In this document: piece after piece, positions 41,489 through 50,977 of the stretch
Layout: each line of letters begins with the position of its first letter
Position numbering within the stretch: position 1 is the first letter of the stretch
Source: Candidatus Brevundimonas colombiensis
Lineage (GTDB): Bacteria > Pseudomonadota > Alphaproteobacteria > Caulobacterales > Caulobacteraceae
Assembly (NCBI GenBank): GCA_029202665.1
Contig: CP119326.1
Span: 589,092 to 653,091 of the forward strand
Length of the DNA: 64,000 bases
Direction: 5' to 3'
Position numbers and translations under genes: made by a program
The notes under the pieces: generated by a model
Seen by the model: the letters and a program-made list of their open reading frames with translations, nothing else
What the model was told of the DNA's origin: nothing
Database searches by the model: none

Positions 41489-42391
41489 TCAGACGGCCGC
41501 GTCGAACAGGGCGTCACGCGCCACATCGGCATGGGTCATGGGAAACAGATGCCCGCCGCCGGGAACCACATCGACCCTGACGTTGGGCAGGCCGCGCGGC
41601 GCCGCGGGCAGCTGGGTCAGGGCCCCATGCTCGGCCTTCAGGATATGGACGGGGCCGGGATAGCGGCGCAGGGCGCGCCAGGGATCGTGCGCCTGGGCGG
41701 CGTAGTTGGCCGCCTCCCACGCCGGGGCGGCGGCCAGATCGAAGCCGTCCGCGCCCGGCGCGGCGATCAGTCCCTCGGACAGGTAATCGGCCAGCACCCC
41801 GTCGGGCCATCCCTTGAAGGCGCCTCGCCCGCGATAGGCCGCCATGGCCTGTTCGCGGCTGTCGAAGCGGCTGCGACGCCGACGCGCGGCGGTCGCGATG
41901 GGAATATGTTCCACGAACCGATGGGCGAACGGCAGATTGAAGGCCATGACCGCCGCCCGTTTCCAGATCACCGGATCGAACAGCACCAGGCTGGAGACGC
42001 GCTCGGGCCGTTCGGCCGCCGCCAGCAGCGAGGCGGTTGCGCCCATCGAGTGACCGGCCATGACCACCGGCGGCCCCGCCACAGCCGCCAACAGCGCCAG
42101 CAGATCGTCGCGATGATCGCGCCAGCTGGTCTTGGGTCGGGCGAAAGTCGGCAGGGTCGAGCCCCCATGGCCCCGCAGGTCCGGCGCCCAGATGCGCAAG
42201 CTGGTCGACAGCGGCGACAGCAGCCGACGATAGGTGGCGGCGTTGAACCCGTTGGCGTGGCTGAAGATCAGATCGACGGGCCGGTTCGGATCGCCGAAGT
42301 CCAGCACCGCCATCTCGCCTGCGCCCCAGCGGTTGTCGATGGGCACGGACAGGCGACGCGGCGGGGACATCAGCGCCGCGTCCATGATCAC
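41489..42391 (-). CDS. Alpha/beta-fold hydrolase
   Basis: FSHANGF, PDLRGHG, AGHSMGA, GGGHLFPM. Confidence 0.9.
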   Translation of the reverse strand: MIMDAALMSPPRRLSVPIDNRWGAGEMAVLDFGDPNRPVDLIFSHANGFNAATYRRLLSPLSTSLRIWAPDLRGHGGSTLPTFARPKTSWRDHRDDLLALLAAVAGPPVVMAGHSMGATASLLAAAERPERVSSLVLFDPVIWKRAAVMAFNLPFAHRFVEHIPIATAARRRRSRFDSREQAMAAYRGRGAFKGWPDGVLADYLSEGLIAAPGADGFDLAAAPAWEAANYAAQAHDPWRALRRYPGPVHILKAEHGALTQLPAAPRGLPNVRVDVVPGGGHLFPMTHADVARDALFDAAV

Positions 42392-42879
42392 GCCGCCTCG
42401 CGACAGGCGGCGCAGCGGCCATGGGCCTCTATGGTGGTGCGGGCGATGGCGTAGCCGGCGGCCGAGGCGGCGACCGCCATGGCGCCTTGGTCCGGCCCGC
42501 TGACCTCGCGCGTCGCGCCGCAGCAGTCGCAGATCAGGAAGGCGGCGGCGTGGATGGCGTCGCCTTCGTCGCTGCTGCAGGCGACATAGGCGCTGATGGA
42601 GGCGATGCGGTGGGCCATGCCCAGTCGCTCCAGGAACTCCAGCGCGCGATAGACGGTGGGGGGTTTGGCGGCCTGGCCGTCCTCGCCGAAGCGGGCGATC
42701 AGATCATAGGCCTTGACCGGGCCTCCGGCCTCCAGCAGCAGGGCCAGGACGCGGCGGCGCTGGGCGGTCATCCGCTCGCCGTCCTTGACCGCGCGCGCCT
42801 CGGCCAGGGCGAGGGCGCGATCCAGCGCGCCGCCCTTCAGGCCGGAATGGTCGTGATCGTGATCGCAGGCGCTGCCCAT
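42388..42879 (-). CDS. zur: Zur-type Fur family regulator with His-rich N-terminus
   Basis: KAYDLI, KPPTVYRALEFL, FLICDCCG, HGRCAAC. Confidence 0.82.
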   Translation of the reverse strand: MGSACDHDHDHSGLKGGALDRALALAEARAVKDGERMTAQRRRVLALLLEAGGPVKAYDLIARFGEDGQAAKPPTVYRALEFLERLGMAHRIASISAYVACSSDEGDAIHAAAFLICDCCGATREVSGPDQGAMAVAASAAGYAIARTTIEAHGRCAACREAA

Positions 42880-42998
42880 GGCCCACAGCTAATGGCTGAA
42901 CCCTTCCGCTGCAACCGACGCATCACGGGTTTGCCGCTGAGGCGGGCTTGGGCTAGAAGGCGCGCCTCATATCTCATTATCCAGAGCGTCCTCGCTTC

Positions 42999-43778
42999 AT
43001 GACCGACACGAACAACTCGCCGCTCGAAGGCAACGTCCTCTTCTATGTGAATCCTGAGCCGCTGGATCAGGGCGCTCATGCGAACCTGGGCGTCAATCCG
43101 ACCGACAAGCCCTACGCCTTCGTGGCCCAGACGAACATCGTGCCGCTGACGGTCACCGAGTTCGCCGCCGCCGCCCTGTCCTATCCGATCATCTTCACCG
43201 GCGACAACCGCCAGCCGGTCGTGGTGATGGGCCTGCGCCAGGGCGAGAACCTGTTCGTCGCCGATGACGGCGAGTTCCGCGCCGACGCCTATGTGCCCGC
43301 CTATGTGCGCCGCTATCCGTTCGTCTTCGCCGACGACAAGCAGAACCAGCGCCTGATCCTGTGCATCGACCGCGGCGCCGCCATCGTGACCGAGGGCGGC
43401 GAGAACCCGCTGTTCGTCGACGGTCAGCCCAGCGACTACACCAACATGGCCATGGAGTTCTGCAACAACTTCGAACAGGAGCGCCAGCGCACGGAAAGCT
43501 TCGTCCAGCTGATCAAGGATCTGGACCTGCTGGACACGCGCGACGCCGTGTTCACGCCGCGCAACCCCGACGGCACGCCGGGCGAACCGCAGAAGCTGGC
43601 CGAATATTATGCGGTGTCGGAAGACAAGCTGCGCGCCCTGCCGGCCGAGAAGCTGGCCGAACTGCGCGACAACGGCGCCCTGGGTCAGATCTACGCCCAC
43701 CTGGTGTCACTGCTGGGCTGGGATCGTCTGATCGCCCTGGCCTTCCTGCGCCAGGCCCAGTCGACGACCGTCAACTAG
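42999..43778 (+). CDS. SapC family protein
   Basis: PLTVTEFAAAALSYPIIF, VMGLRQGENLF, YVPAYVRRYPF, LGQIYAHLVSL. Confidence 0.88.
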   Translation: MTDTNNSPLEGNVLFYVNPEPLDQGAHANLGVNPTDKPYAFVAQTNIVPLTVTEFAAAALSYPIIFTGDNRQPVVVMGLRQGENLFVADDGEFRADAYVPAYVRRYPFVFADDKQNQRLILCIDRGAAIVTEGGENPLFVDGQPSDYTNMAMEFCNNFEQERQRTESFVQLIKDLDLLDTRDAVFTPRNPDGTPGEPQKLAEYYAVSEDKLRALPAEKLAELRDNGALGQIYAHLVSLLGWDRLIALAFLRQAQSTTVN

Positions 43779-43840: not shown

Positions 43841-44248
43841 TCAGCGACGGGAGAAGACCGCGCGCGTCAGGCATGAGAAGACCAGCCGCCCCGCCTCGTC
43901 CAACAGGTCGTGCGAAGCGATGACGATGCCCTTCTCGTCGCCGACCGGATCCTTGCCCATCACCGTCATCCGCCCGCGCAGCAGCTCGCCCGCCGGGGGA
44001 TTGCGCATGTAACGCAGGCCGTCGACGGCCAGGACCTTGGTCTGGGCCCATCCGCCCGACTTGTCGGCGGCCAGGCGGCTCCACAACACATAGACCATGG
44101 CGTCGGGCGCGCCGTAGGCCGGGTCCCAACCCGGGGCGAATCGCTCCACGAAGACCTCCAGCGCCGCCTGATCGACCGCGCAGGCGCCCAGGGGCACGAC
44201 CTGCCCCACTTCCAGGTCTTCGAAATGGACGTGCAGCGGGTCGCTCAT
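43841..44248 (-). CDS. MaoC-like hotdog-fold protein
   Basis: HFEDLEVGQ, VDGLRYMRNPPAGELLRGRMTV, GRLVFSC. Confidence 0.75.
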   Translation of the reverse strand: MSDPLHVHFEDLEVGQVVPLGACAVDQAALEVFVERFAPGWDPAYGAPDAMVYVLWSRLAADKSGGWAQTKVLAVDGLRYMRNPPAGELLRGRMTVMGKDPVGDEKGIVIASHDLLDEAGRLVFSCLTRAVFSRR

Positions 44249-44270: not shown

Positions 44271-45311
44271 TCAGGCGGGTTCCTCGGAAACCCGGACCAG
44301 CAGCTTGCCGTCGTGATCGCCGGTGAACAAGCGATTCAGCGAATCGACCGCCCCGTCCAGGCCGTCGTCGACATGCACCTTCCACTTCACCCGCCCGTCG
44401 GCCAGCCACGGCCCCATTTCGGCGACCATCTCCCTGGCCCGCCCGGCGTAGTCCAGCACGAGGAAGCCCTGGACCTGAAGCCGGTGGGTGATGATGCGCG
44501 AGAAATTCGGCGAAGGCGGCGCCTTGGTCGCATTGTAGGCCGAGACCAGGCCGCACACCGCCATCCGGCCATGCACCTTGAGGCGGTTGAACACCGCGAT
44601 CATGATGTCGCCGCCGACGTTTTCGAAGTTCAGGTCGATGCCGTCGGGGGCCACCCGGTCCAGCGCCTCGCCAACATCCTCGTTCTTGTAGTCGATGGCC
44701 GCATCGAAGCCGAGTTCGTCGGTCAGCCAAGCGCATTTCTGTGGTCCGCCGGCGATGCCGATGACCCGGCATCCGCGCTGTTTGGCGATCTGGCCGGCGA
44801 TGGAGCCGACCGCGCCGGCCGCCGCCGAAATGACGATGGTCTCGCCGGCCTTGGCTTTCAACACGTCGGTCACGCCGAAATAGGCGGTCAGGCCGGTCAT
44901 GCCCAAAACCGACATATTGGCCGTCAGCGGCAGGCCCGGCGCGCGGTGGACGGGACGCAAGCCGCCCTCAGGGATCACGGCGTAATCGGCCCAGCCGCCC
45001 GAGGCCGGCATGACCACGTCGCCGGTCTTGAAGCGGTCTGACCTGGACGCCTCGACCACGCCCAGGGTCAGGCCGCGCATGACCTCGCCCAGACCCACCG
45101 GCGGCAGATAGCCCTCGATGTCGTTCATCCAGGTGCGGTTGGTCGGGTCCAGCGACAGATAGACGGTGCGGACCAGCACTTCGCCCTCGCCCACGTCCGG
45201 CACGGGGGTCTCGACCAGTTCCAGGTCGCCGGGCTGGATCAGACCCCTGGGTCGCTGACGCAGCACCCACTGCCGGTTCATCTTGCCGTCTTGCGAAGTC
45301 ATCAGCATCAC
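44271..45311 (-). CDS. NADP-dependent oxidoreductase (PTGR/CurA type); start may be 45280
   Basis: YLSLDP, LGMTGLTAYFG, SAAAGAVGS, GIAGG, FENVGG. Confidence 0.93.
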   Translation of the reverse strand: MMLMTSQDGKMNRQWVLRQRPRGLIQPGDLELVETPVPDVGEGEVLVRTVYLSLDPTNRTWMNDIEGYLPPVGLGEVMRGLTLGVVEASRSDRFKTGDVVMPASGGWADYAVIPEGGLRPVHRAPGLPLTANMSVLGMTGLTAYFGVTDVLKAKAGETIVISAAAGAVGSIAGQIAKQRGCRVIGIAGGPQKCAWLTDELGFDAAIDYKNEDVGEALDRVAPDGIDLNFENVGGDIMIAVFNRLKVHGRMAVCGLVSAYNATKAPPSPNFSRIITHRLQVQGFLVLDYAGRAREMVAEMGPWLADGRVKWKVHVDDGLDGAVDSLNRLFTGDHDGKLLVRVSEEPA

Positions 45312-45377
45312 TCCCGAAGGTTTTCTTTGACCACCATCTTGAGCCGAGTAAGGCGACGGGTCGAGGCGAGGCGCAAG

Positions 45378-45488
45378 AAAAAAGCGGTCCTTTCGGACCG
45401 CCTTGAAGTGGCATCATCGAGAATGAGGTGCGGAGGCAGCATGACCGGCCTGGGCCAGTCAAGTCGGGGGGCGTCGCCGCCTCCACAT
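45378..45488 (-). ncRNA. gsrN: GsrN-like general-stress-response sRNA
   Basis: SigT promoter upstream; 5' stem UGGAGGCGGC/GCUGCCUCCG enclosing a CCCCCC loop and a UGACUGGC/GCCGGUCA hairpin; terminator GCGGUCC-GAAA-GGACCGC-U6; adjacent to phyR and a maoC-like gene. 5' end estimated. Confidence 0.8.
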
Positions 45489-45494
45489 GCCGAT

Positions 45495-45519
45495 AACGAC
45501 GCCGTCTGGCGGCGGTTCC
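45495..45519 (-). promoter_or_regulatory. SigT/EcfG promoter of the sRNA
   Basis: GGAAC-N16-CGTT. Confidence 0.85.
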
Positions 45520-45581
45520 CGGTGCGGCTCTTTTTCTTTTGCGCGTCGTTCGCGCGTCGAAGGGCCCCAGGCGCATAAACG

Positions 45582-45616
45582 AAAAAGGCCGTGTCGCCGT
45601 GGGCGAACAAGGCCTT
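45582..45616 (-). terminator. Terminator after phyR
   Basis: GGCC...UCGCC-CAC-GGCGA...GGCC-U5 on the minus strand. Confidence 0.65.
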
Positions 45617-45639
45617 CTCAGCGTCGGTGGATTCGGGCT

Positions 45640-46434
45640 TTAGGCGGCCTGTTTCTGACGCGACGGATGGAAGAACAACGCCTGACTGATCGCCGCCTTC
45701 ACCGTCTCGGGTTGGAACGGCTTGGTGATCAGGAAGGTCGGCTCAGGGCGCTCACCCGTCAGCAGACGCTCCGGGAAGGCGGTGATGAAGATCACCGGCA
45801 CATCCAGCGTCTTGAGGATGTCCTTCACTGCGTCGATGCCGGACGACCCGTCGGCCAGCTGTATGTCGGCCAGAACCAGGCCCGGCTTGTGACGGGCGAC
45901 GGCGTCGATGGCCTCGTCATGAGTGGTGGCGGTGCCGGTGACGCGGTGGCCCAACTCCTGCACCAGGCTCTGGATATCGGCCGAGATGATCGCCTCGTCC
46001 TCGATCACCAGAACGTCGGTGGCCAGTTCGGCGTCGATGTCGGCCTGGGCGTCGGCGATCAGGCGCTCGACGTCGCGCGGGTCTGCCGACAGGATCTGAG
46101 CCGCCTCGGACGGGGTGAACCCCTCCAGCGCGGTCAGAAGGAAGGCCTGGCGCGAGCGGGGCGCGATACGCAGCAGACGCTGCGAGGCGTCGCTTCCGGT
46201 CGTTTCAAGGCCGCCGGCTTCCAGCTGCGCCCCGGTCGAGGACCAGATGGCGTGAAACACATGATACAGGGCCACCCGCGGCGTCATGTCCGAGGACAGT
46301 TGCTGCTCGCCCGCCGCCAGGGCTTCGAGCGCCACGCGCACATAGTTGTCGCCCGTTGATTGATCGCCGGTCAGGGCGCGAGCGTAGCGGCGCACATAAG
46401 GAAGGTGCGGCGCGAGTCTAGCCAAAAGGCTCAT
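45640..46434 (-). CDS. phyR: Anti-anti-sigma factor PhyR
   Basis: N-terminal sigma-like domain (LPYVRRYARALTG) plus receiver domain (IEDE, LADIQLADGSSG, ITKPF). Confidence 0.97.
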   Translation of the reverse strand: MSLLARLAPHLPYVRRYARALTGDQSTGDNYVRVALEALAAGEQQLSSDMTPRVALYHVFHAIWSSTGAQLEAGGLETTGSDASQRLLRIAPRSRQAFLLTALEGFTPSEAAQILSADPRDVERLIADAQADIDAELATDVLVIEDEAIISADIQSLVQELGHRVTGTATTHDEAIDAVARHKPGLVLADIQLADGSSGIDAVKDILKTLDVPVIFITAFPERLLTGERPEPTFLITKPFQPETVKAAISQALFFHPSRQKQAA

Positions 46435-46494: not shown

Positions 46495-46519
46495 AACGTA
46501 TCATATCGGTCGCGGTTCC
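46495..46519 (-). promoter_or_regulatory. SigT/EcfG promoter of phyR
   Basis: GGAAC-N16-CGTT. Confidence 0.85.
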
Positions 46520-46560: not shown

Positions 46561-46585
46561 GGAACCGCCGGGCAAGGATGGCGTT
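46561..46585 (+). promoter_or_regulatory. SigT/EcfG promoter of nepR-sigT
   Basis: GGAAC-N16-CGTT. Confidence 0.85.
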
Positions 46586-46632
46586 AAGCGCTGGCATCTC
46601 TGCGACGACGTTGGGTGGGCCTTGTTCTGTCT

Positions 46633-46836
46633 ATGATTGATTCTATCGACTCCTCGCGCGCCCCGGGCGCAGACACCAAAGGGGAGGCCGGCCTCGAAGA
46701 AGCGCGTCTTCGCCAACAGGCCATCGGCGTGAAGCTGCGGCATATGTTCGACGAGGTCGTCAACGAACCGGTCCCCGACGAGTTCCTGGAAATCCTGAAG
46801 CGCGCCGACGCCAAGGCTGCGGAAAGCCCCGCATGA
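46633..46836 (+). CDS. nepR: Anti-sigma factor NepR
   Basis: AIGVKLRHMFDEVVNEPVPDEFLEIL; overlaps the sigT start by 4 nt. Confidence 0.93.
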   Translation: MIDSIDSSRAPGADTKGEAGLEEARLRQQAIGVKLRHMFDEVVNEPVPDEFLEILKRADAKAAESPA

Positions 46837-47444
46837 GCACCTCACGCCTGGGAGCGGCCCCCAAGCCGGCGTCCGCCGACGACGAAGGCTTCAAGCGCGA
46901 ACTGGTCCTGCTGATCCCGCATCTGCGCGCCTTCGCCCGAACCCTGACCGGCGATCCCACCGCCGCCGACGATCTGGCGCAGGACGCCATGATGAAGGCC
47001 TGGGACGCCCGCGCCAGCTATCAGATGGGCACCAACATGAAGGCCTGGACCTTCATGATCCTGCGCAACCAATTCTATTCCGAAAAGCGACGGTCGTGGC
47101 GGCAGTCGCAACTGGACCAGGAAGCGGCTGAACGCACCCTGGTCGCCGTGGACGATCCCGAGGCGCCCGTCGCGCTGGACGAACTGCGTCAGGCGCTGAA
47201 GACCCTGCCGGAAGAGCAGCGCGAAGCCCTGATACTGGTCGGCGCCGGCGGGTTCGCCTACGAGGAAGCGGCCGAAATCTGCGGCTGCGCGGTCGGCACG
47301 GTCAAGAGCCGGGTCAGCCGCGCGCGCCGGGCCCTTCAGGCCACATTGGAACGCGGCGGTTACAGCCGCGACGGCCAAGCGGCCGGCGAGGCTATGCGCA
47401 CCATTCTGGGCGAGGCCGACAGGCTGGCCGGCGCACGGAGCTGA
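46833..47444 (+). CDS. sigT: ECF15 sigma factor SigT/EcfG
   Basis: IPHLRAFARTLTG, AWTFMILRNQFYS, YEEAAEICGCAVGTVKSRVSRAR. Confidence 0.96.
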   Translation: MSTSRLGAAPKPASADDEGFKRELVLLIPHLRAFARTLTGDPTAADDLAQDAMMKAWDARASYQMGTNMKAWTFMILRNQFYSEKRRSWRQSQLDQEAAERTLVAVDDPEAPVALDELRQALKTLPEEQREALILVGAGGFAYEEAAEICGCAVGTVKSRVSRARRALQATLERGGYSRDGQAAGEAMRTILGEADRLAGARS

Positions 47445-47450
47445 TCGACG

Positions 47451-49247
47451 GTGAATGCGCCGTCTGACGCCACACGGCCCCGACTGGCCAGAGCATGGAC
47501 GAAGGACCGATTCCAGGGCATTCGCTTTCGGCTGGGCGCGGCCATGGCCATGGCTCTGCTGCCGATCTTCGTCCTCAGCCTGATCCAGACCCAGGCGGAT
47601 TTCCGTCGCCAGGCCGAGGATCGCCAGGTCGATCTGCAACTGGCGGCGGAACGCAGCGCTTCTGACGCCAAGGCCCAGCTGGACAGCGCTCAGGTCCTGC
47701 TGCGCGCCCTCAGCCCCGACGCCGCCGGCCCCTATTGCCCGGCGCGCCTGACCAACCTGGTCGGTCGGCTGGACGGCTATGAGGGGCTTTATCGCATCAG
47801 TCCGACCGGCGAGGCGACCTGCGCCTCCGGCCGACCCGCCGGCCTGCGATCCGGTGTGGCGCCGGCGGCGAACTCCCAATGGTTTCAGCGGCTGCGCAAC
47901 GGCGAAGACATGGTGGTCATGCGCGCGCCGGACGACGCCGGCTATCGCGCCGCCCTGATCGTGGCGACACGGGCCGAGCGGCCGATGGGCCGTTTCGACG
48001 GGGCCATGGTGGCGGTGATCCCCCTGTCGGCGCTGCAACCCGATCTGGATGATCCCGCCCTGCCCTCCGGGTCCCAGGCGGCCCTGACCGACGGCGCCGG
48101 ACGCATTCTGACGGCCAGCGAGGCCGGGGTCTTCCACCTGTCGGGCGGGGATGACCTGGCGGGCTGGGTGTCGCGGGCGCGGGCGGACGGGTCGGCGGTG
48201 TTCGAGGCGCGCGACGCGGGCGGCGAACGGCGCGACTACGCCGGCGCGGCCCTGGCCGGCGGCGACCTCTACGCCCTGCTGTCCGCGCCATCCCAGGGAT
48301 GGCTGTCCTGGGCGCGGCTCAATCCGATCGGCACGCTTCTGCTGCCTCTGGGCGCCTGGCTGACCGCGTTCGCGGCGGTGATGCTGCTGTCCGAACGCAT
48401 CTTCATCCGCTGGCTGGACTATCTGGAGCGGGTGGCGGCCATCTATACGCGCGGACGGTTTTCCGTGCGGCCGCTGCAGGCCATGAACGCGCCCGCCGAA
48501 ATCCGCACCATGGCCAAGACCCTGGACGAGATGGCCGAAGCCATCACCGTGCGCGACCGGGAACTGACCGACGCCCTGGCCGAGAAGGACGCGCTGATGC
48601 GCGAAATCCATCACCGGGTGAAGAACAATCTTCAGATCATCTCGTCCCTGCTGTCGATGCAGCAACGGGCTCTGACCGACGCTCCCGCCAAGGCGGCGCT
48701 GGGCGACACCCGTCAGCGGATTTCGGCCCTGGCCCTGATCTATCGCACCCTCTACCAGAGCGCCGACATTCGTCACGCGGATGCGCGTGAGTTCCTGAAT
48801 GAACTGGTTGGCCAGTTGATCGCCAGCGAAGCCGGGCGCGGCCCCGTGGTGATCAGTTCGGTGGACGCCGATTCCCTGCATGTCGACCCGGACAAGCTGG
48901 CGCCGCTGGCGCTGTGGCTGGTCGAGGCTGTGACCAACGCCCAGAAGCACGCGTTTGCGCTGAACGGCGGCGAGCTGAAAGTCCGCTTCCGTGTTCAGGG
49001 CGACACGTCGGTTCTCGAGGTCGAGGACGACGGCCCCGGCGCGCCGGCCGGCGCCGAGGTCGGGGTCGGACGCACCCTGATGAGCGCCTTCGCCAAACAG
49101 CTGCGCGGCGAGACCGAATTCGTGGCGGCGCCGGGCGGCGGAACCATCGCCCGCATGACCTTCGCCACGCCCGAGGCGTTGATGCCGGTCGACCCTGCCG
49201 ACAAGTCGTCGGTCGAAAAAGGAACCGGAGCCGTGGGGTCGCGTTGA
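47451..49247 (+). CDS. Membrane sensor histidine kinase (HisKA_2), PhyK-like
   Basis: Two TM segments, periplasmic sensor, REIHHRVKNNLQIISSLL, EAVTNAQKHAF, VEDDGPG. Confidence 0.9.
   Translation: MNAPSDATRPRLARAWTKDRFQGIRFRLGAAMAMALLPIFVLSLIQTQADFRRQAEDRQVDLQLAAERSASDAKAQLDSAQVLLRALSPDAAGPYCPARLTNLVGRLDGYEGLYRISPTGEATCASGRPAGLRSGVAPAANSQWFQRLRNGEDMVVMRAPDDAGYRAALIVATRAERPMGRFDGAMVAVIPLSALQPDLDDPALPSGSQAALTDGAGRILTASEAGVFHLSGGDDLAGWVSRARADGSAVFEARDAGGERRDYAGAALAGGDLYALLSAPSQGWLSWARLNPIGTLLLPLGAWLTAFAAVMLLSERIFIRWLDYLERVAAIYTRGRFSVRPLQAMNAPAEIRTMAKTLDEMAEAITVRDRELTDALAEKDALMREIHHRVKNNLQIISSLLSMQQRALTDAPAKAALGDTRQRISALALIYRTLYQSADIRHADAREFLNELVGQLIASEAGRGPVVISSVDADSLHVDPDKLAPLALWLVEAVTNAQKHAFALNGGELKVRFRVQGDTSVLEVEDDGPGAPAGAEVGVGRTLMSAFAKQLRGETEFVAAPGGGTIARMTFATPEALMPVDPADKSSVEKGTGAVGSR
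49221..49245 (+). promoter_or_regulatory. SigT/EcfG promoter of the entericidin gene, inside the kinase 3' end
   Basis: GGAAC-N16-CGTT. Confidence 0.8.
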
Positions 49248-49466: not shown

Positions 49467-49500
49467 CAAGGCCCCGCTTCGTCGGGGCCTTGTTCGTTTC
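49467..49500 (+). terminator. Terminator after the entericidin gene
   Basis: CAAGGCCCCG-loop-CGGGGCCTTG-TTCGTTTC. Confidence 0.7.
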
Positions 49501-49522
49501 AAGTCCCCTCCAGGAGATCGCC

Positions 49523-50977
49523 GTGAACCAGACCGCCCGTAAAGCCGGCCTCGCCCTGCTGAAACAGCACGCCCTGATCGCGGGCGAAGCCGTCCCCGCG
49601 AATGGCGCGGGCGTCGCCGTTGACGACCCGGCGACCGGCGAGATCATCGGCCATGTGCCCGATCTGGGCGCGGCCGAAACGGAGCGCGCCATTGCGGCGG
49701 CGACTGAAAGCTTCGCCGACTGGTCCCGGCGCGATCCGCACAAACGCGCGGCCTTCCTGCGGGCCTGGGCGGCGCTGATCGACGAGAACACCGAGGGGCT
49801 GGGCGCCCTGATGGCGCTGGAGAACGGCAAGCCTTTCGAGGAGGCCAGGGGCGAGGTCGCCTACGCCAACAGCTTTCTGAAATGGTTCGCCGGCCAGGCC
49901 GAGCGTCTGATCGGCGAGACCCAGGACAGCCCGCTGGGCCATCTGATCCTGACCTATCGCGAGGCGGTGGGGCCGTGCGCCCTGATCACGCCGTGGAACT
50001 TCCCCGCCGCCATGCTGACGCGGAAACTGGGTCCGGCCTTCGCGGCGGGCTGCACCGCCGTGGTCAAGCCCGCCAGCCAGACGCCGTTCACCGCCATCGC
50101 CCTGGCCGAGCTGGCCTATCAGGCGGGGCTGCCCAAGGGGGCGCTGTCCGTCGTCACCGGCGATGCGGCGACCATCGGCAAGGTGCTGACCGACAGTCCC
50201 GACATCCGCAAACTGAGCTTCACCGGTTCGACCGGCGTGGGCCGCAAGCTGGCCGAACAGTGCGCCCCGACGCTGAAGCGGGTGTCGATGGAACTGGGCG
50301 GCGCGGCGCCCCTGATCGTCTTCGCCGACTCCGATCTGGACCTGGCCGTAGCCGAAACCATCAAGGGCAAGTTCAGGAACGCGGGCCAGACCTGCGTCTG
50401 CCCCAACCGGGTCTATGTGGAGCGGTCGGTCGCCGAGACCTATGCCGAAAAACTGGCCGCCGAGGTGGCCAGGATCAAGGTCGGCGCCGCCTTCGACGAC
50501 GGGGTCAAGGTCGGACCGCTGATCGAGGACAAGGCCATCGACAAGGTCGAGAAACACGTCGCGGCGATCAAGGCCGACGGCGGCCGGGTGCTGACCGGCG
50601 GATCGCGCCACGAGCTGGGCGGCCGCTTCTTCCAGCCCACCGTGACCTTGGGCGGCAACGACGCCCTGTTCCGCGAGGAAGAGACCTTCGGCCCGATGAT
50701 CCCCGTCTTCGCGTTCGACACCGAAGAAGAGGCGCTGGAGAAGGCCAACGCCAGCGATTACGGCCTGGCCTCCTATCTGTTCACCCGCGATCTGGACCGC
50801 GCCATGCGGTTCAGCCGCCGGATCGAAGCGGGGATGTGCGGGGTCAACACCGGCCTGATCTCCACCGCCGTCGCCCCGTTCGGGGGCGTCAAACAGTCGG
50901 GCTATGGCCGCGAAGGCTCGATCCACGGCATCGAAGAATATGTGGACATCAAAACCGTGACCCTGGCGCTGAAATAG
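49523..50977 (+). CDS. gabD: NAD(P)-dependent succinate-semialdehyde dehydrogenase (GTG start)
   Basis: ITPWNFP, SFTGST, MELGG, FRNAGQTCVC, EETFGP, PFGGVKQSGYGREGS. Confidence 0.9.
   Translation: MNQTARKAGLALLKQHALIAGEAVPANGAGVAVDDPATGEIIGHVPDLGAAETERAIAAATESFADWSRRDPHKRAAFLRAWAALIDENTEGLGALMALENGKPFEEARGEVAYANSFLKWFAGQAERLIGETQDSPLGHLILTYREAVGPCALITPWNFPAAMLTRKLGPAFAAGCTAVVKPASQTPFTAIALAELAYQAGLPKGALSVVTGDAATIGKVLTDSPDIRKLSFTGSTGVGRKLAEQCAPTLKRVSMELGGAAPLIVFADSDLDLAVAETIKGKFRNAGQTCVCPNRVYVERSVAETYAEKLAAEVARIKVGAAFDDGVKVGPLIEDKAIDKVEKHVAAIKADGGRVLTGGSRHELGGRFFQPTVTLGGNDALFREEETFGPMIPVFAFDTEEEALEKANASDYGLASYLFTRDLDRAMRFSRRIEAGMCGVNTGLISTAVAPFGGVKQSGYGREGSIHGIEEYVDIKTVTLALK

Follow-up and report, generated by a model that had tools for sequence, protein, structure and literature searches.

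A probable orthologue of the general-stress-response small RNA GsrN directly after phyR in Candidatus Brevundimonas colombiensis

The window analysed in this study is a stretch of 64,000 nucleotides of the Candidatus Brevundimonas colombiensis genome (contig CP119326.1, positions 589,092 to 653,091), and positions are counted from its first letter unless otherwise indicated. It contains a general stress locus with phyR, nepR, ecfG and a sensor kinase gene, a short structured RNA directly after phyR and, further along the strand of that RNA, an oxidoreductase gene and a conserved ORF which we call orf135. The genes and the elements of the RNA are the following:

43841-44248, minus strand: orf135, a conserved ORF of 135 aa, two genes after gsrN
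44271-45311, minus strand: medium-chain NADP-dependent oxidoreductase, CurA/PTGR-like (Pfam ADH_N_2, ADH_zinc_N), downstream of gsrN
45375-45484, minus strand: predicted GsrN RNA body including the U-tail, about 105-110 nt (RF01529 match, single-copy)
45381-45404, minus strand: intrinsic terminator hairpin of 10 bp (6 G-C) with a GAAA loop and a U-tail to about 45375
45405-45431, minus strand: linker GCACCUCAUUCUCGAUGAUGCCACUUC, 27 nt, its core invariant or near-invariant in Brevundimonas
45432-45441, minus strand: 3' arm of the closing stem, UGCUGCCUCC, pairing with 45475-45484; by analogy with C. crescentus, the likely processing site is just 3' of it
45442-45461, minus strand: inner hairpin UGACUGGC-CCAG-GCCGGUCA, with compensatory changes at 5 of 7 pairs
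45462-45474, minus strand: exposed C-rich putative recognition loop ACGCCCCCCGACU, 13 nt, with the C6 tract at 45471-45466 (nt 14-19)
45475-45484, minus strand: 5' arm of the closing stem, GGAGGCGGCG, pairing with 45441-45432; the minimum free energy (MFE) and consensus folds agree
G 45484 or G 45486, minus strand: predicted transcription start, by homology with the C. crescentus 5' end mapped by primer extension; the Rfam model begins at 45484
45495-45519, minus strand: promoter of the sigma-EcfG/sigma-T type, an exact match with GGAAC at 45519-45515, a 16-nt spacer and CGTT at 45498-45495
45528-45540, minus strand: A-rich tract AAAAGAAAAAGAG, 9-21 nt upstream of the -35 element and possibly UP-element-like in function
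45640-46434, minus strand: phyR, anti-anti-sigma response regulator (Pfam PhyR_sigma2, PhyR_sigma-like, Response_reg)
46615-46836, plus strand: nepR, anti-sigma factor (Pfam NepR)
46833-47444, plus strand: ecfG/sigT, the ECF sigma factor expected to read the gsrN promoter (Pfam Sigma70_r2, Sigma70_r4_2)
47451-49247, plus strand: PhyK-like HisKA_2/HWE sensor kinase (Pfam HisKA_2, HATPase_c, dCache_1)

The stop codon of phyR lies 155 nt upstream of the small RNA, on the same strand. A previous reading, made from the letters of the sequence and hereafter called the sequence-only reading, had placed phyR at 45640 and an NADP oxidoreductase gene between the RNA and an ORF labelled maoC-like. Pfam confirmed the first two (45640-46434 and 44271-45311, respectively), while the label given to 43841-44248 found no support, with no Pfam, NCBIfam or significant PDB sequence match. 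The oxidoreductase scored 357.8 bits with NCBIfam NF058644, below its cut-off of 440, and its true start is probably an ATG near 45281, since its orthologues align from residue 10-12. With respect to orf135, it is 70-99% identical across Brevundimonas and shows 72 invariant columns in 25 sequences. Neither this ORF nor its 24 orthologues gave a Pfam or NCBIfam match even at E ≤ 1, and the comparison with PDB sequences gave nothing significant (best E-value 0.34). Its AlphaFold2 model, obtained from a shallow alignment, had a pLDDT of 48.5, a confidence at which the Foldseek matches are meaningless; orf135 may still have a hot-dog fold.

Some further genes of this region must be mentioned. A SapC-family protein is encoded at 42999-43778 on the plus strand (Pfam PF07277, E = 5e-66), and the two ORFs upstream of it (41531-42454 and 42421-43002) gave no family match. 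At L165:2360-2665 of G018 (minus strand), and at the equivalent place in 15 of the 21 loci of the genus, phyR and gsrN have between them a gene encoding a single-pass membrane protein of some 100 aa, with its own EcfG-type promoter, divergent from gsrN. This gene is absent from the 155-nt gap of the window, and a 43%-identical copy is found elsewhere in the genome, at C1:1170366-1170653.

The covariance-model search that the sequence-only reading had proposed as a check gave a full-length match of the RNA to Rfam family RF01529 ("CC3552") at 45484-45382. The match covered model positions 1-106 of 106, was not truncated, and reached 84.6 bits (gathering score 50; E = 4e-12). It was the single match at gathering level in the Rfam scan of the whole window and the only match to RF01529 in the 3.30-Mb single-contig genome. 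The best match to this model family-wide (G188, 113.3 bits) was letter-identical to the published gsrN gene and promoter of C. crescentus (Tien et al. 2018, supplement) and, in addition, the 106 positions of the model equal the 106 nt of C. crescentus GsrN. Because of this letter identity, RF01529 is, judged by sequence, the GsrN family. In C. crescentus, gsrN (CCNA_R0081, 106 nt) carries a consensus sigma-T site and depends on sigT for its transcription (Tien, Fiebig & Crosson 2018, PMC5869019); it had been first reported as an sRNA by Landt et al. 2008 (per PMC5869019).

The distribution of the family was determined in the same way. Across the GTDB family, RF01529 was found in 85 of 151 genomes and in 21 of 27 genera, always as a single match, and 16 genomes from other families of the order gave 0 matches. 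Within the genus, 21 of the 25 Brevundimonas genomes had one match each, and all 21 loci showed the order phyR, gsrN, oxidoreductase, orf135 on one strand. Three further Brevundimonas genomes carry diverged copies at the same site after phyR. Among the 20 loci of other genera, the order sigT, nepR, phyR, gsrN is kept in 14. It had been stated that gsrN homologues lie near general-stress and maoC-like genes. The first part of this statement holds, as phyR is upstream in those 14 loci, but the second does not, an orf135 homologue being found in 1 of the 20. At the Caulobacter-identical locus, neither an orf135 homologue nor stress genes were found within 4 kb. On these gene orders, gsrN does not generally have a maoC-like gene beside it.

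The promoter announced at 45519-45495 is present, with every base of the GGAAC-N16-CGTT motif exact. Searching the window for GGAAC-N15-17-CGTT revealed 5 sites where 1.5 were expected, a number that was reached by 2 of 100 shuffles. The stress locus and its immediate borders account for four of the five (the gsrN site, one ahead of phyR, one ahead of nepR and one within nepR), and the fifth is at the end of the kinase gene. As regards the sites other than that of gsrN, the one preceding phyR is at 46495-46519 (minus strand), the nepR-ecfG pair has its own EcfG-type promoter at 46561-46585 (plus strand), and the site inside nepR is antisense, at 46762-46786 (minus strand). The site at the end of the kinase gene (49221-49245, plus strand) precedes an aldehyde dehydrogenase gene (49490-50977) by about 245 nt. 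Because an exact EcfG-type site stands at this distance, the aldehyde dehydrogenase gene may be a member of the stress regulon.

The gsrN promoter is also found in the relatives. In Brevundimonas, the -35 GGAAC was present in 21 of 21 gsrN loci, as was (C/G/A)(G/A)TT at -13 to -10, and 13 of the 21 had the exact GGAAC-N15-17-CGTT. The loci of other genera had the -35 GGAAC in 20 of 20 and a -10 element ending in GTT also in 20 of 20, with CGTT in 5 of them, so that the -35 element is conserved in all 41 loci examined. Most of the 21 Brevundimonas loci, like the C. crescentus promoter (CTCTTCAAAAAAATCG), have an A-run at the place of the A-rich tract of the window. Reading the minus strand, the CGTT of the promoter is followed by ten bases and then by GGAGGCGGCGACGCCCCCCGACUUGACUGGCCCAGGCCGGUCAUGCUGCCUCCGCACCUCAUUCUCGAUGAUGCCACUUCAAGGCGGUCCGAAAGGACCGCUUUUUUCUU. 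The distance from CGTT to the 5' end of the RNA is 8-10 nt, a spacing equal to that of the sigT-dependent PgsrN of C. crescentus. As regards the two candidate starts, the oligonucleotide labels of Tien et al. 2018 (PMC5869019) imply two +1 numberings that are 2 nt apart: according to probe 10-57 and primer 81-105, +1 is the G of GAAGG, while primers 18-36 and 72-89 and the PP7 insertion sites place +1 at the G two bases further upstream. The homologous positions are G 45484 and G 45486, and the start previously assigned to 45488 is thus 2-4 nt too far upstream.

From 45486 or 45484 to about 45376, the predicted RNA measures 105-110 nt, in agreement with the structured transcript of about 110 nt that had been described. 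The MFE of the 113-nt stretch was -54.9 kcal/mol, compared with -36.1 ± 3.3 in 200 shuffles (z = -5.7), none of which was as good. The long 5' stem of the sequence-only reading corresponds in the MFE structure to the closing stem, in which nt 1-10 pair with nt 44-53 (10 bp) and 98.9% of the cells are paired across 21 sequences. The CCCCCC tract had been presented as an exposed loop. It is indeed exposed, with an unpaired probability of 0.82-0.99 (0.82-1.0 for the whole loop), but it is not the apex of a hairpin: the closing stem and the inner hairpin are separated by an asymmetric internal loop, and the tract sits on its 5' side. Similarly, the second hairpin that had been described is predicted as a small UCAUU/GAUGA stem in the linker, though this stem shows no covariation. 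The terminator scan of positions 45000-46000 gave exactly one site, with its stem at 45404-45381, close to the GC stem-GAAA-U6 element that had been located at 45401-45378.

Base changes among the relatives agree with this fold. In the alignment of the 21 Brevundimonas sequences, changes on both sides of a pair were observed at 13 of 32 pairs, compared with 4.9 ± 1.5 in shuffled alignments (0 of 500 reached the observed value) and 1-6 in the slid controls. Such changes keep the pairing at 5 of 7 pairs of the inner hairpin and at 7 of 8 counted pairs of the terminator. In the same 21 sequences the linker mini-hairpin covaried at 0 of 8 pairs and, for this reason, the linker is taken as constrained in sequence and not in structure. 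Over 43 sequences of the family, the mean column identity was highest in the loop (0.94), followed by the two arms of the closing stem (0.93 and 0.85) and the linker core (0.87). This agrees with the C-rich loop being the best-conserved part of GsrN (Tien et al. 2018, PMC5869019).

The four Brevundimonas genomes lacking a model match were G014, G003, G018 and G011. In the first, an incomplete genome, no phyR orthologue was found by the search. Each of the other three carries a diverged GsrN-like RNA with an EcfG promoter after phyR, at L165:2766-2905 (G018), L166:2753-2890 (G003) and L167:2332-2460 (G011), and RF01529 misses these copies even at E ≤ 1 with permissive filters. In G003 and G018 the closing stem has been fully rebuilt (CGAGGGC/GCCCUCG), and the CCCCC loop, the linker and the terminator are kept. 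In G011 the C-rich loop is gone, the linker CCUCAUUUCUCGAUGAUGC and the terminator are kept, and the oxidoreductase gene is absent.

The RNA of the window is 73% identical to C. crescentus GsrN and has the same MFE architecture of closing stem, inner hairpin and terminator. The loop (ACGCCCCCCGACUU in C. crescentus) is identical, and nt 1-24 differ at position 2 only, a change that is compensated because the pair is A-U in Caulobacter and G-C here. The promoter also aligns with PgsrN over the A-tract, GGAAC, the 16 nt, CGTT and the distance to the RNA, and the gene is single-copy in both genomes. With respect to the differences, the RNA of the window lacks 2 nt before the inner hairpin and has 1 extra nt after it, and its linker contains CCUCAUUCUCGAUGAUGC, the consensus of most Caulobacteraceae genera, in place of the CCCCUUUGUUGAUGCG of C. 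crescentus. Moreover, C. crescentus, which was described as the exception (PMC5869019), has its gene far away from the stress locus, whereas the copy of the window follows phyR directly. BLASTn searches have revealed gsrN homologues in Brevundimonas, which as a rule lie close to the GSR locus (Tien et al. 2018, PMC5869019). The window locus shows no substantial difference from these Brevundimonas and Phenylobacterium homologues, which are BLASTn predictions (PMC5869019, Figure 9); those of Brevundimonas belong to the same genus, occupy the same place beside phyR/nepR/ecfG and have the same conserved C-rich loop. For Rhizobiaceae, Brucella and Bradyrhizobiaceae, EcfG-dependent GsrN-like sRNAs next to the stress locus have also been predicted (PMC5869019, Figure 9C). 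They resemble the RNA of the window in their EcfG promoter, in their closeness to phyR and in a 5' domain with an exposed recognition loop. However, they are analogues by position and promoter with no detectable homology to GsrN, whereas the RNA of the window is a true sequence homologue.

Other explanations of these observations must be considered. One of them is that the RNA acts in cis, as the terminated leader of an oxidoreductase-orf135 operon driven by the EcfG promoter, with regulated read-through. Both genes share the strand of the RNA, at 67-100 nt on its downstream side, and come after it in 21 of 21 Brevundimonas loci; orf135 still follows directly in G011, in which the oxidoreductase is missing, and removal of the terminator in C. 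crescentus gives a run-on transcript. Such an attenuator is difficult to reconcile with a terminator that is strong (10 bp, 6 G-C, U-run) and maintained by compensatory changes, or with the presence of the RNA, free of these downstream genes, at the Caulobacter-identical locus and at 19 other non-Brevundimonas loci (orf135 homologue in 1 of 20). In addition, action in trans is proven in Caulobacter, and the most conserved part is the C-loop rather than features specific to a leader. We consider this explanation very unlikely.

The two remaining explanations deny the existence of a separate RNA gene. A promoter-like motif could by chance stand beside ordinary GC-rich hairpins, for example in the tail of phyR, and it must be noted that the strict N16 motif occurs 39 times in the 3.3-Mb genome while about 21 sites are expected from base composition, so that single matches can be due to chance. 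Against this are the RF01529 match above the gathering score, the conservation of promoter, covarying stems and terminator in 21 Brevundimonas loci, the fact that 20 loci of other genera retain the closing stem, the C-rich loop and the promoter -35 element, and the fold z-score of -5.7, which together leave a chance origin extremely improbable. The region could also correspond to a small protein-coding gene, such as the ORF at 45308-45610 (minus strand, 100 aa), given that open frames exist here as everywhere at 67% G+C. The sequence-only reading had found no credible ORF, and the results agree: no Pfam family reached threshold, the only one listed being POM121 (19.8 bits, cut-off 27), the internal ATG is not conserved, and the substitutions are those of paired-stem covariation and not codon-like. 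Since indels of 1 and 2 nt distinguish the relatives within the RNA, the region is non-coding, and a protein-coding gene is hardly conceivable.

With these alternatives weighed, the locus is very probably the Brevundimonas orthologue of gsrN, the general-stress-response sRNA of Caulobacteraceae. The proposal that this is the local GsrN is supported by the RF01529 match, the promoter, the C-rich loop, the terminator and the place beside phyR. Given that Tien et al. 2018 (PMC5869019) had reported Brevundimonas gsrN homologues beside the stress locus, the kind of locus was already known, and the gene of the window is an ordinary orthologue in a published family that is present in Rfam.

The way in which this RNA would act can be outlined on the analogy of C. 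crescentus. Under stress, phosphorylated PhyR would bind NepR and free sigma-EcfG/SigT, whose genes (nepR and ecfG) are 1 kb away. The sigma factor would then read GGAAC-N16-CGTT and transcribe an RNA of about 105-110 nt, stopping at the strong intrinsic terminator. In the predicted fold, the long closing stem would present the 13-nt internal loop, followed by the inner hairpin, the conserved linker and the terminator. In C. crescentus, cleavage near C53/T54 produces a stable 5' isoform that is sufficient for function, and Hfq stabilises full-length GsrN. Likewise, the RNA of the window would probably be cut just 3' of the closing stem, leaving a stable 5' half, and its full-length form would probably be stabilised by Hfq; hfq is present in the genome. 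The six-cytosine loop of C. crescentus GsrN pairs with the G-tract of the katG leader, raising KatG synthesis, and pairs as well with the osrP leader, being needed for osmotic survival and osrP activation. In the same manner, the C-tract of the window would probably base-pair with G-rich mRNA 5' leaders, altering their translation or stability. Action as in Caulobacter is the best-supported reading, given an identical loop presented in the identical way, a matching promoter, neighbouring stress regulators and an hfq gene in the genome; in this reading the steps beyond promoter motif and fold are drawn from that species.

As to the targets, katG is at genome position 1107200 and its leader contains CAGGGGC 46-49 nt upstream, of which only GGGGC matches the loop; the GUCGGGG site of C. 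crescentus is absent. The duplex between this leader and the loop had an energy of -11.8 kcal/mol, worse than 87% of 9004 ORF-start regions, a measure that does not discriminate in a G+C-rich genome because the known C. crescentus katG pair scores -16.1 by the same measure, about the background mean. The G-tract of the katG leader was not conserved across 20 genomes of the genus, the nearest relatives being the only ones to share it. A search of the whole genome, around ORF starts, for loop-complementary 9-mers yielded 145 candidates, which at 67% G+C were dropped as non-discriminating. It was also observed that KatG has two kinds of N-terminus in Brevundimonas (L142-L161), MTTEAKCP... and MDG...PLSDPKKE..., with unrelated leaders. 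Both types follow an OxyR-box-like ATCGATT motif, and the GGGG leader tract occurs only in katG of the MTTEAKCP type, which includes that of this genome.

The search for catalase-peroxidase katG (TIGR00198) in the complete single-contig genomes G003 and G018 found none. An apparent co-loss of gsrN and katG in these two genomes was rejected, as both hold the diverged gsrN after phyR. Since they keep gsrN without katG, the sRNA of Brevundimonas must have targets other than katG, and the Caulobacter target set is not simply transferable.

The linker (CUCGAUGAUG) could be of importance in this regard. An exact search showed that the linker 18-mer is unique in the genome. In the scan of genome contigs with the linker pattern CCGCNCCTCATTNTNGATGA, whose 17 specified bases are too few for 596 Gb, many unrelated phyla were among the matches listed. 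We tentatively propose, as a possible but rather doubtful idea, that the invariant linker CCUCAUUCUCGAUGAUGC might be a second functional module (an additional seed or an RNase E/Hfq site), acting at least in part independently of the C-loop and katG, in Brevundimonas and most non-model Caulobacteraceae. This idea derives from the survival of the linker in G011, which has lost the C-loop, and from the retention of the sRNA in the two complete genomes lacking katG.

The value of this finding is mostly one of annotation: the post-transcriptional arm of the alphaproteobacterial general stress response is present in this genome, and its gene is now placed precisely. For those who work on GsrN, it is a modest pointer that the Rfam model misses the diverged copies of Brevundimonas. 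Finally, the linker motif and the retention of gsrN in genomes without katG suggest a conserved core function of GsrN other than katG activation, this, like the preceding point, being a lead for target studies rather than a finding.
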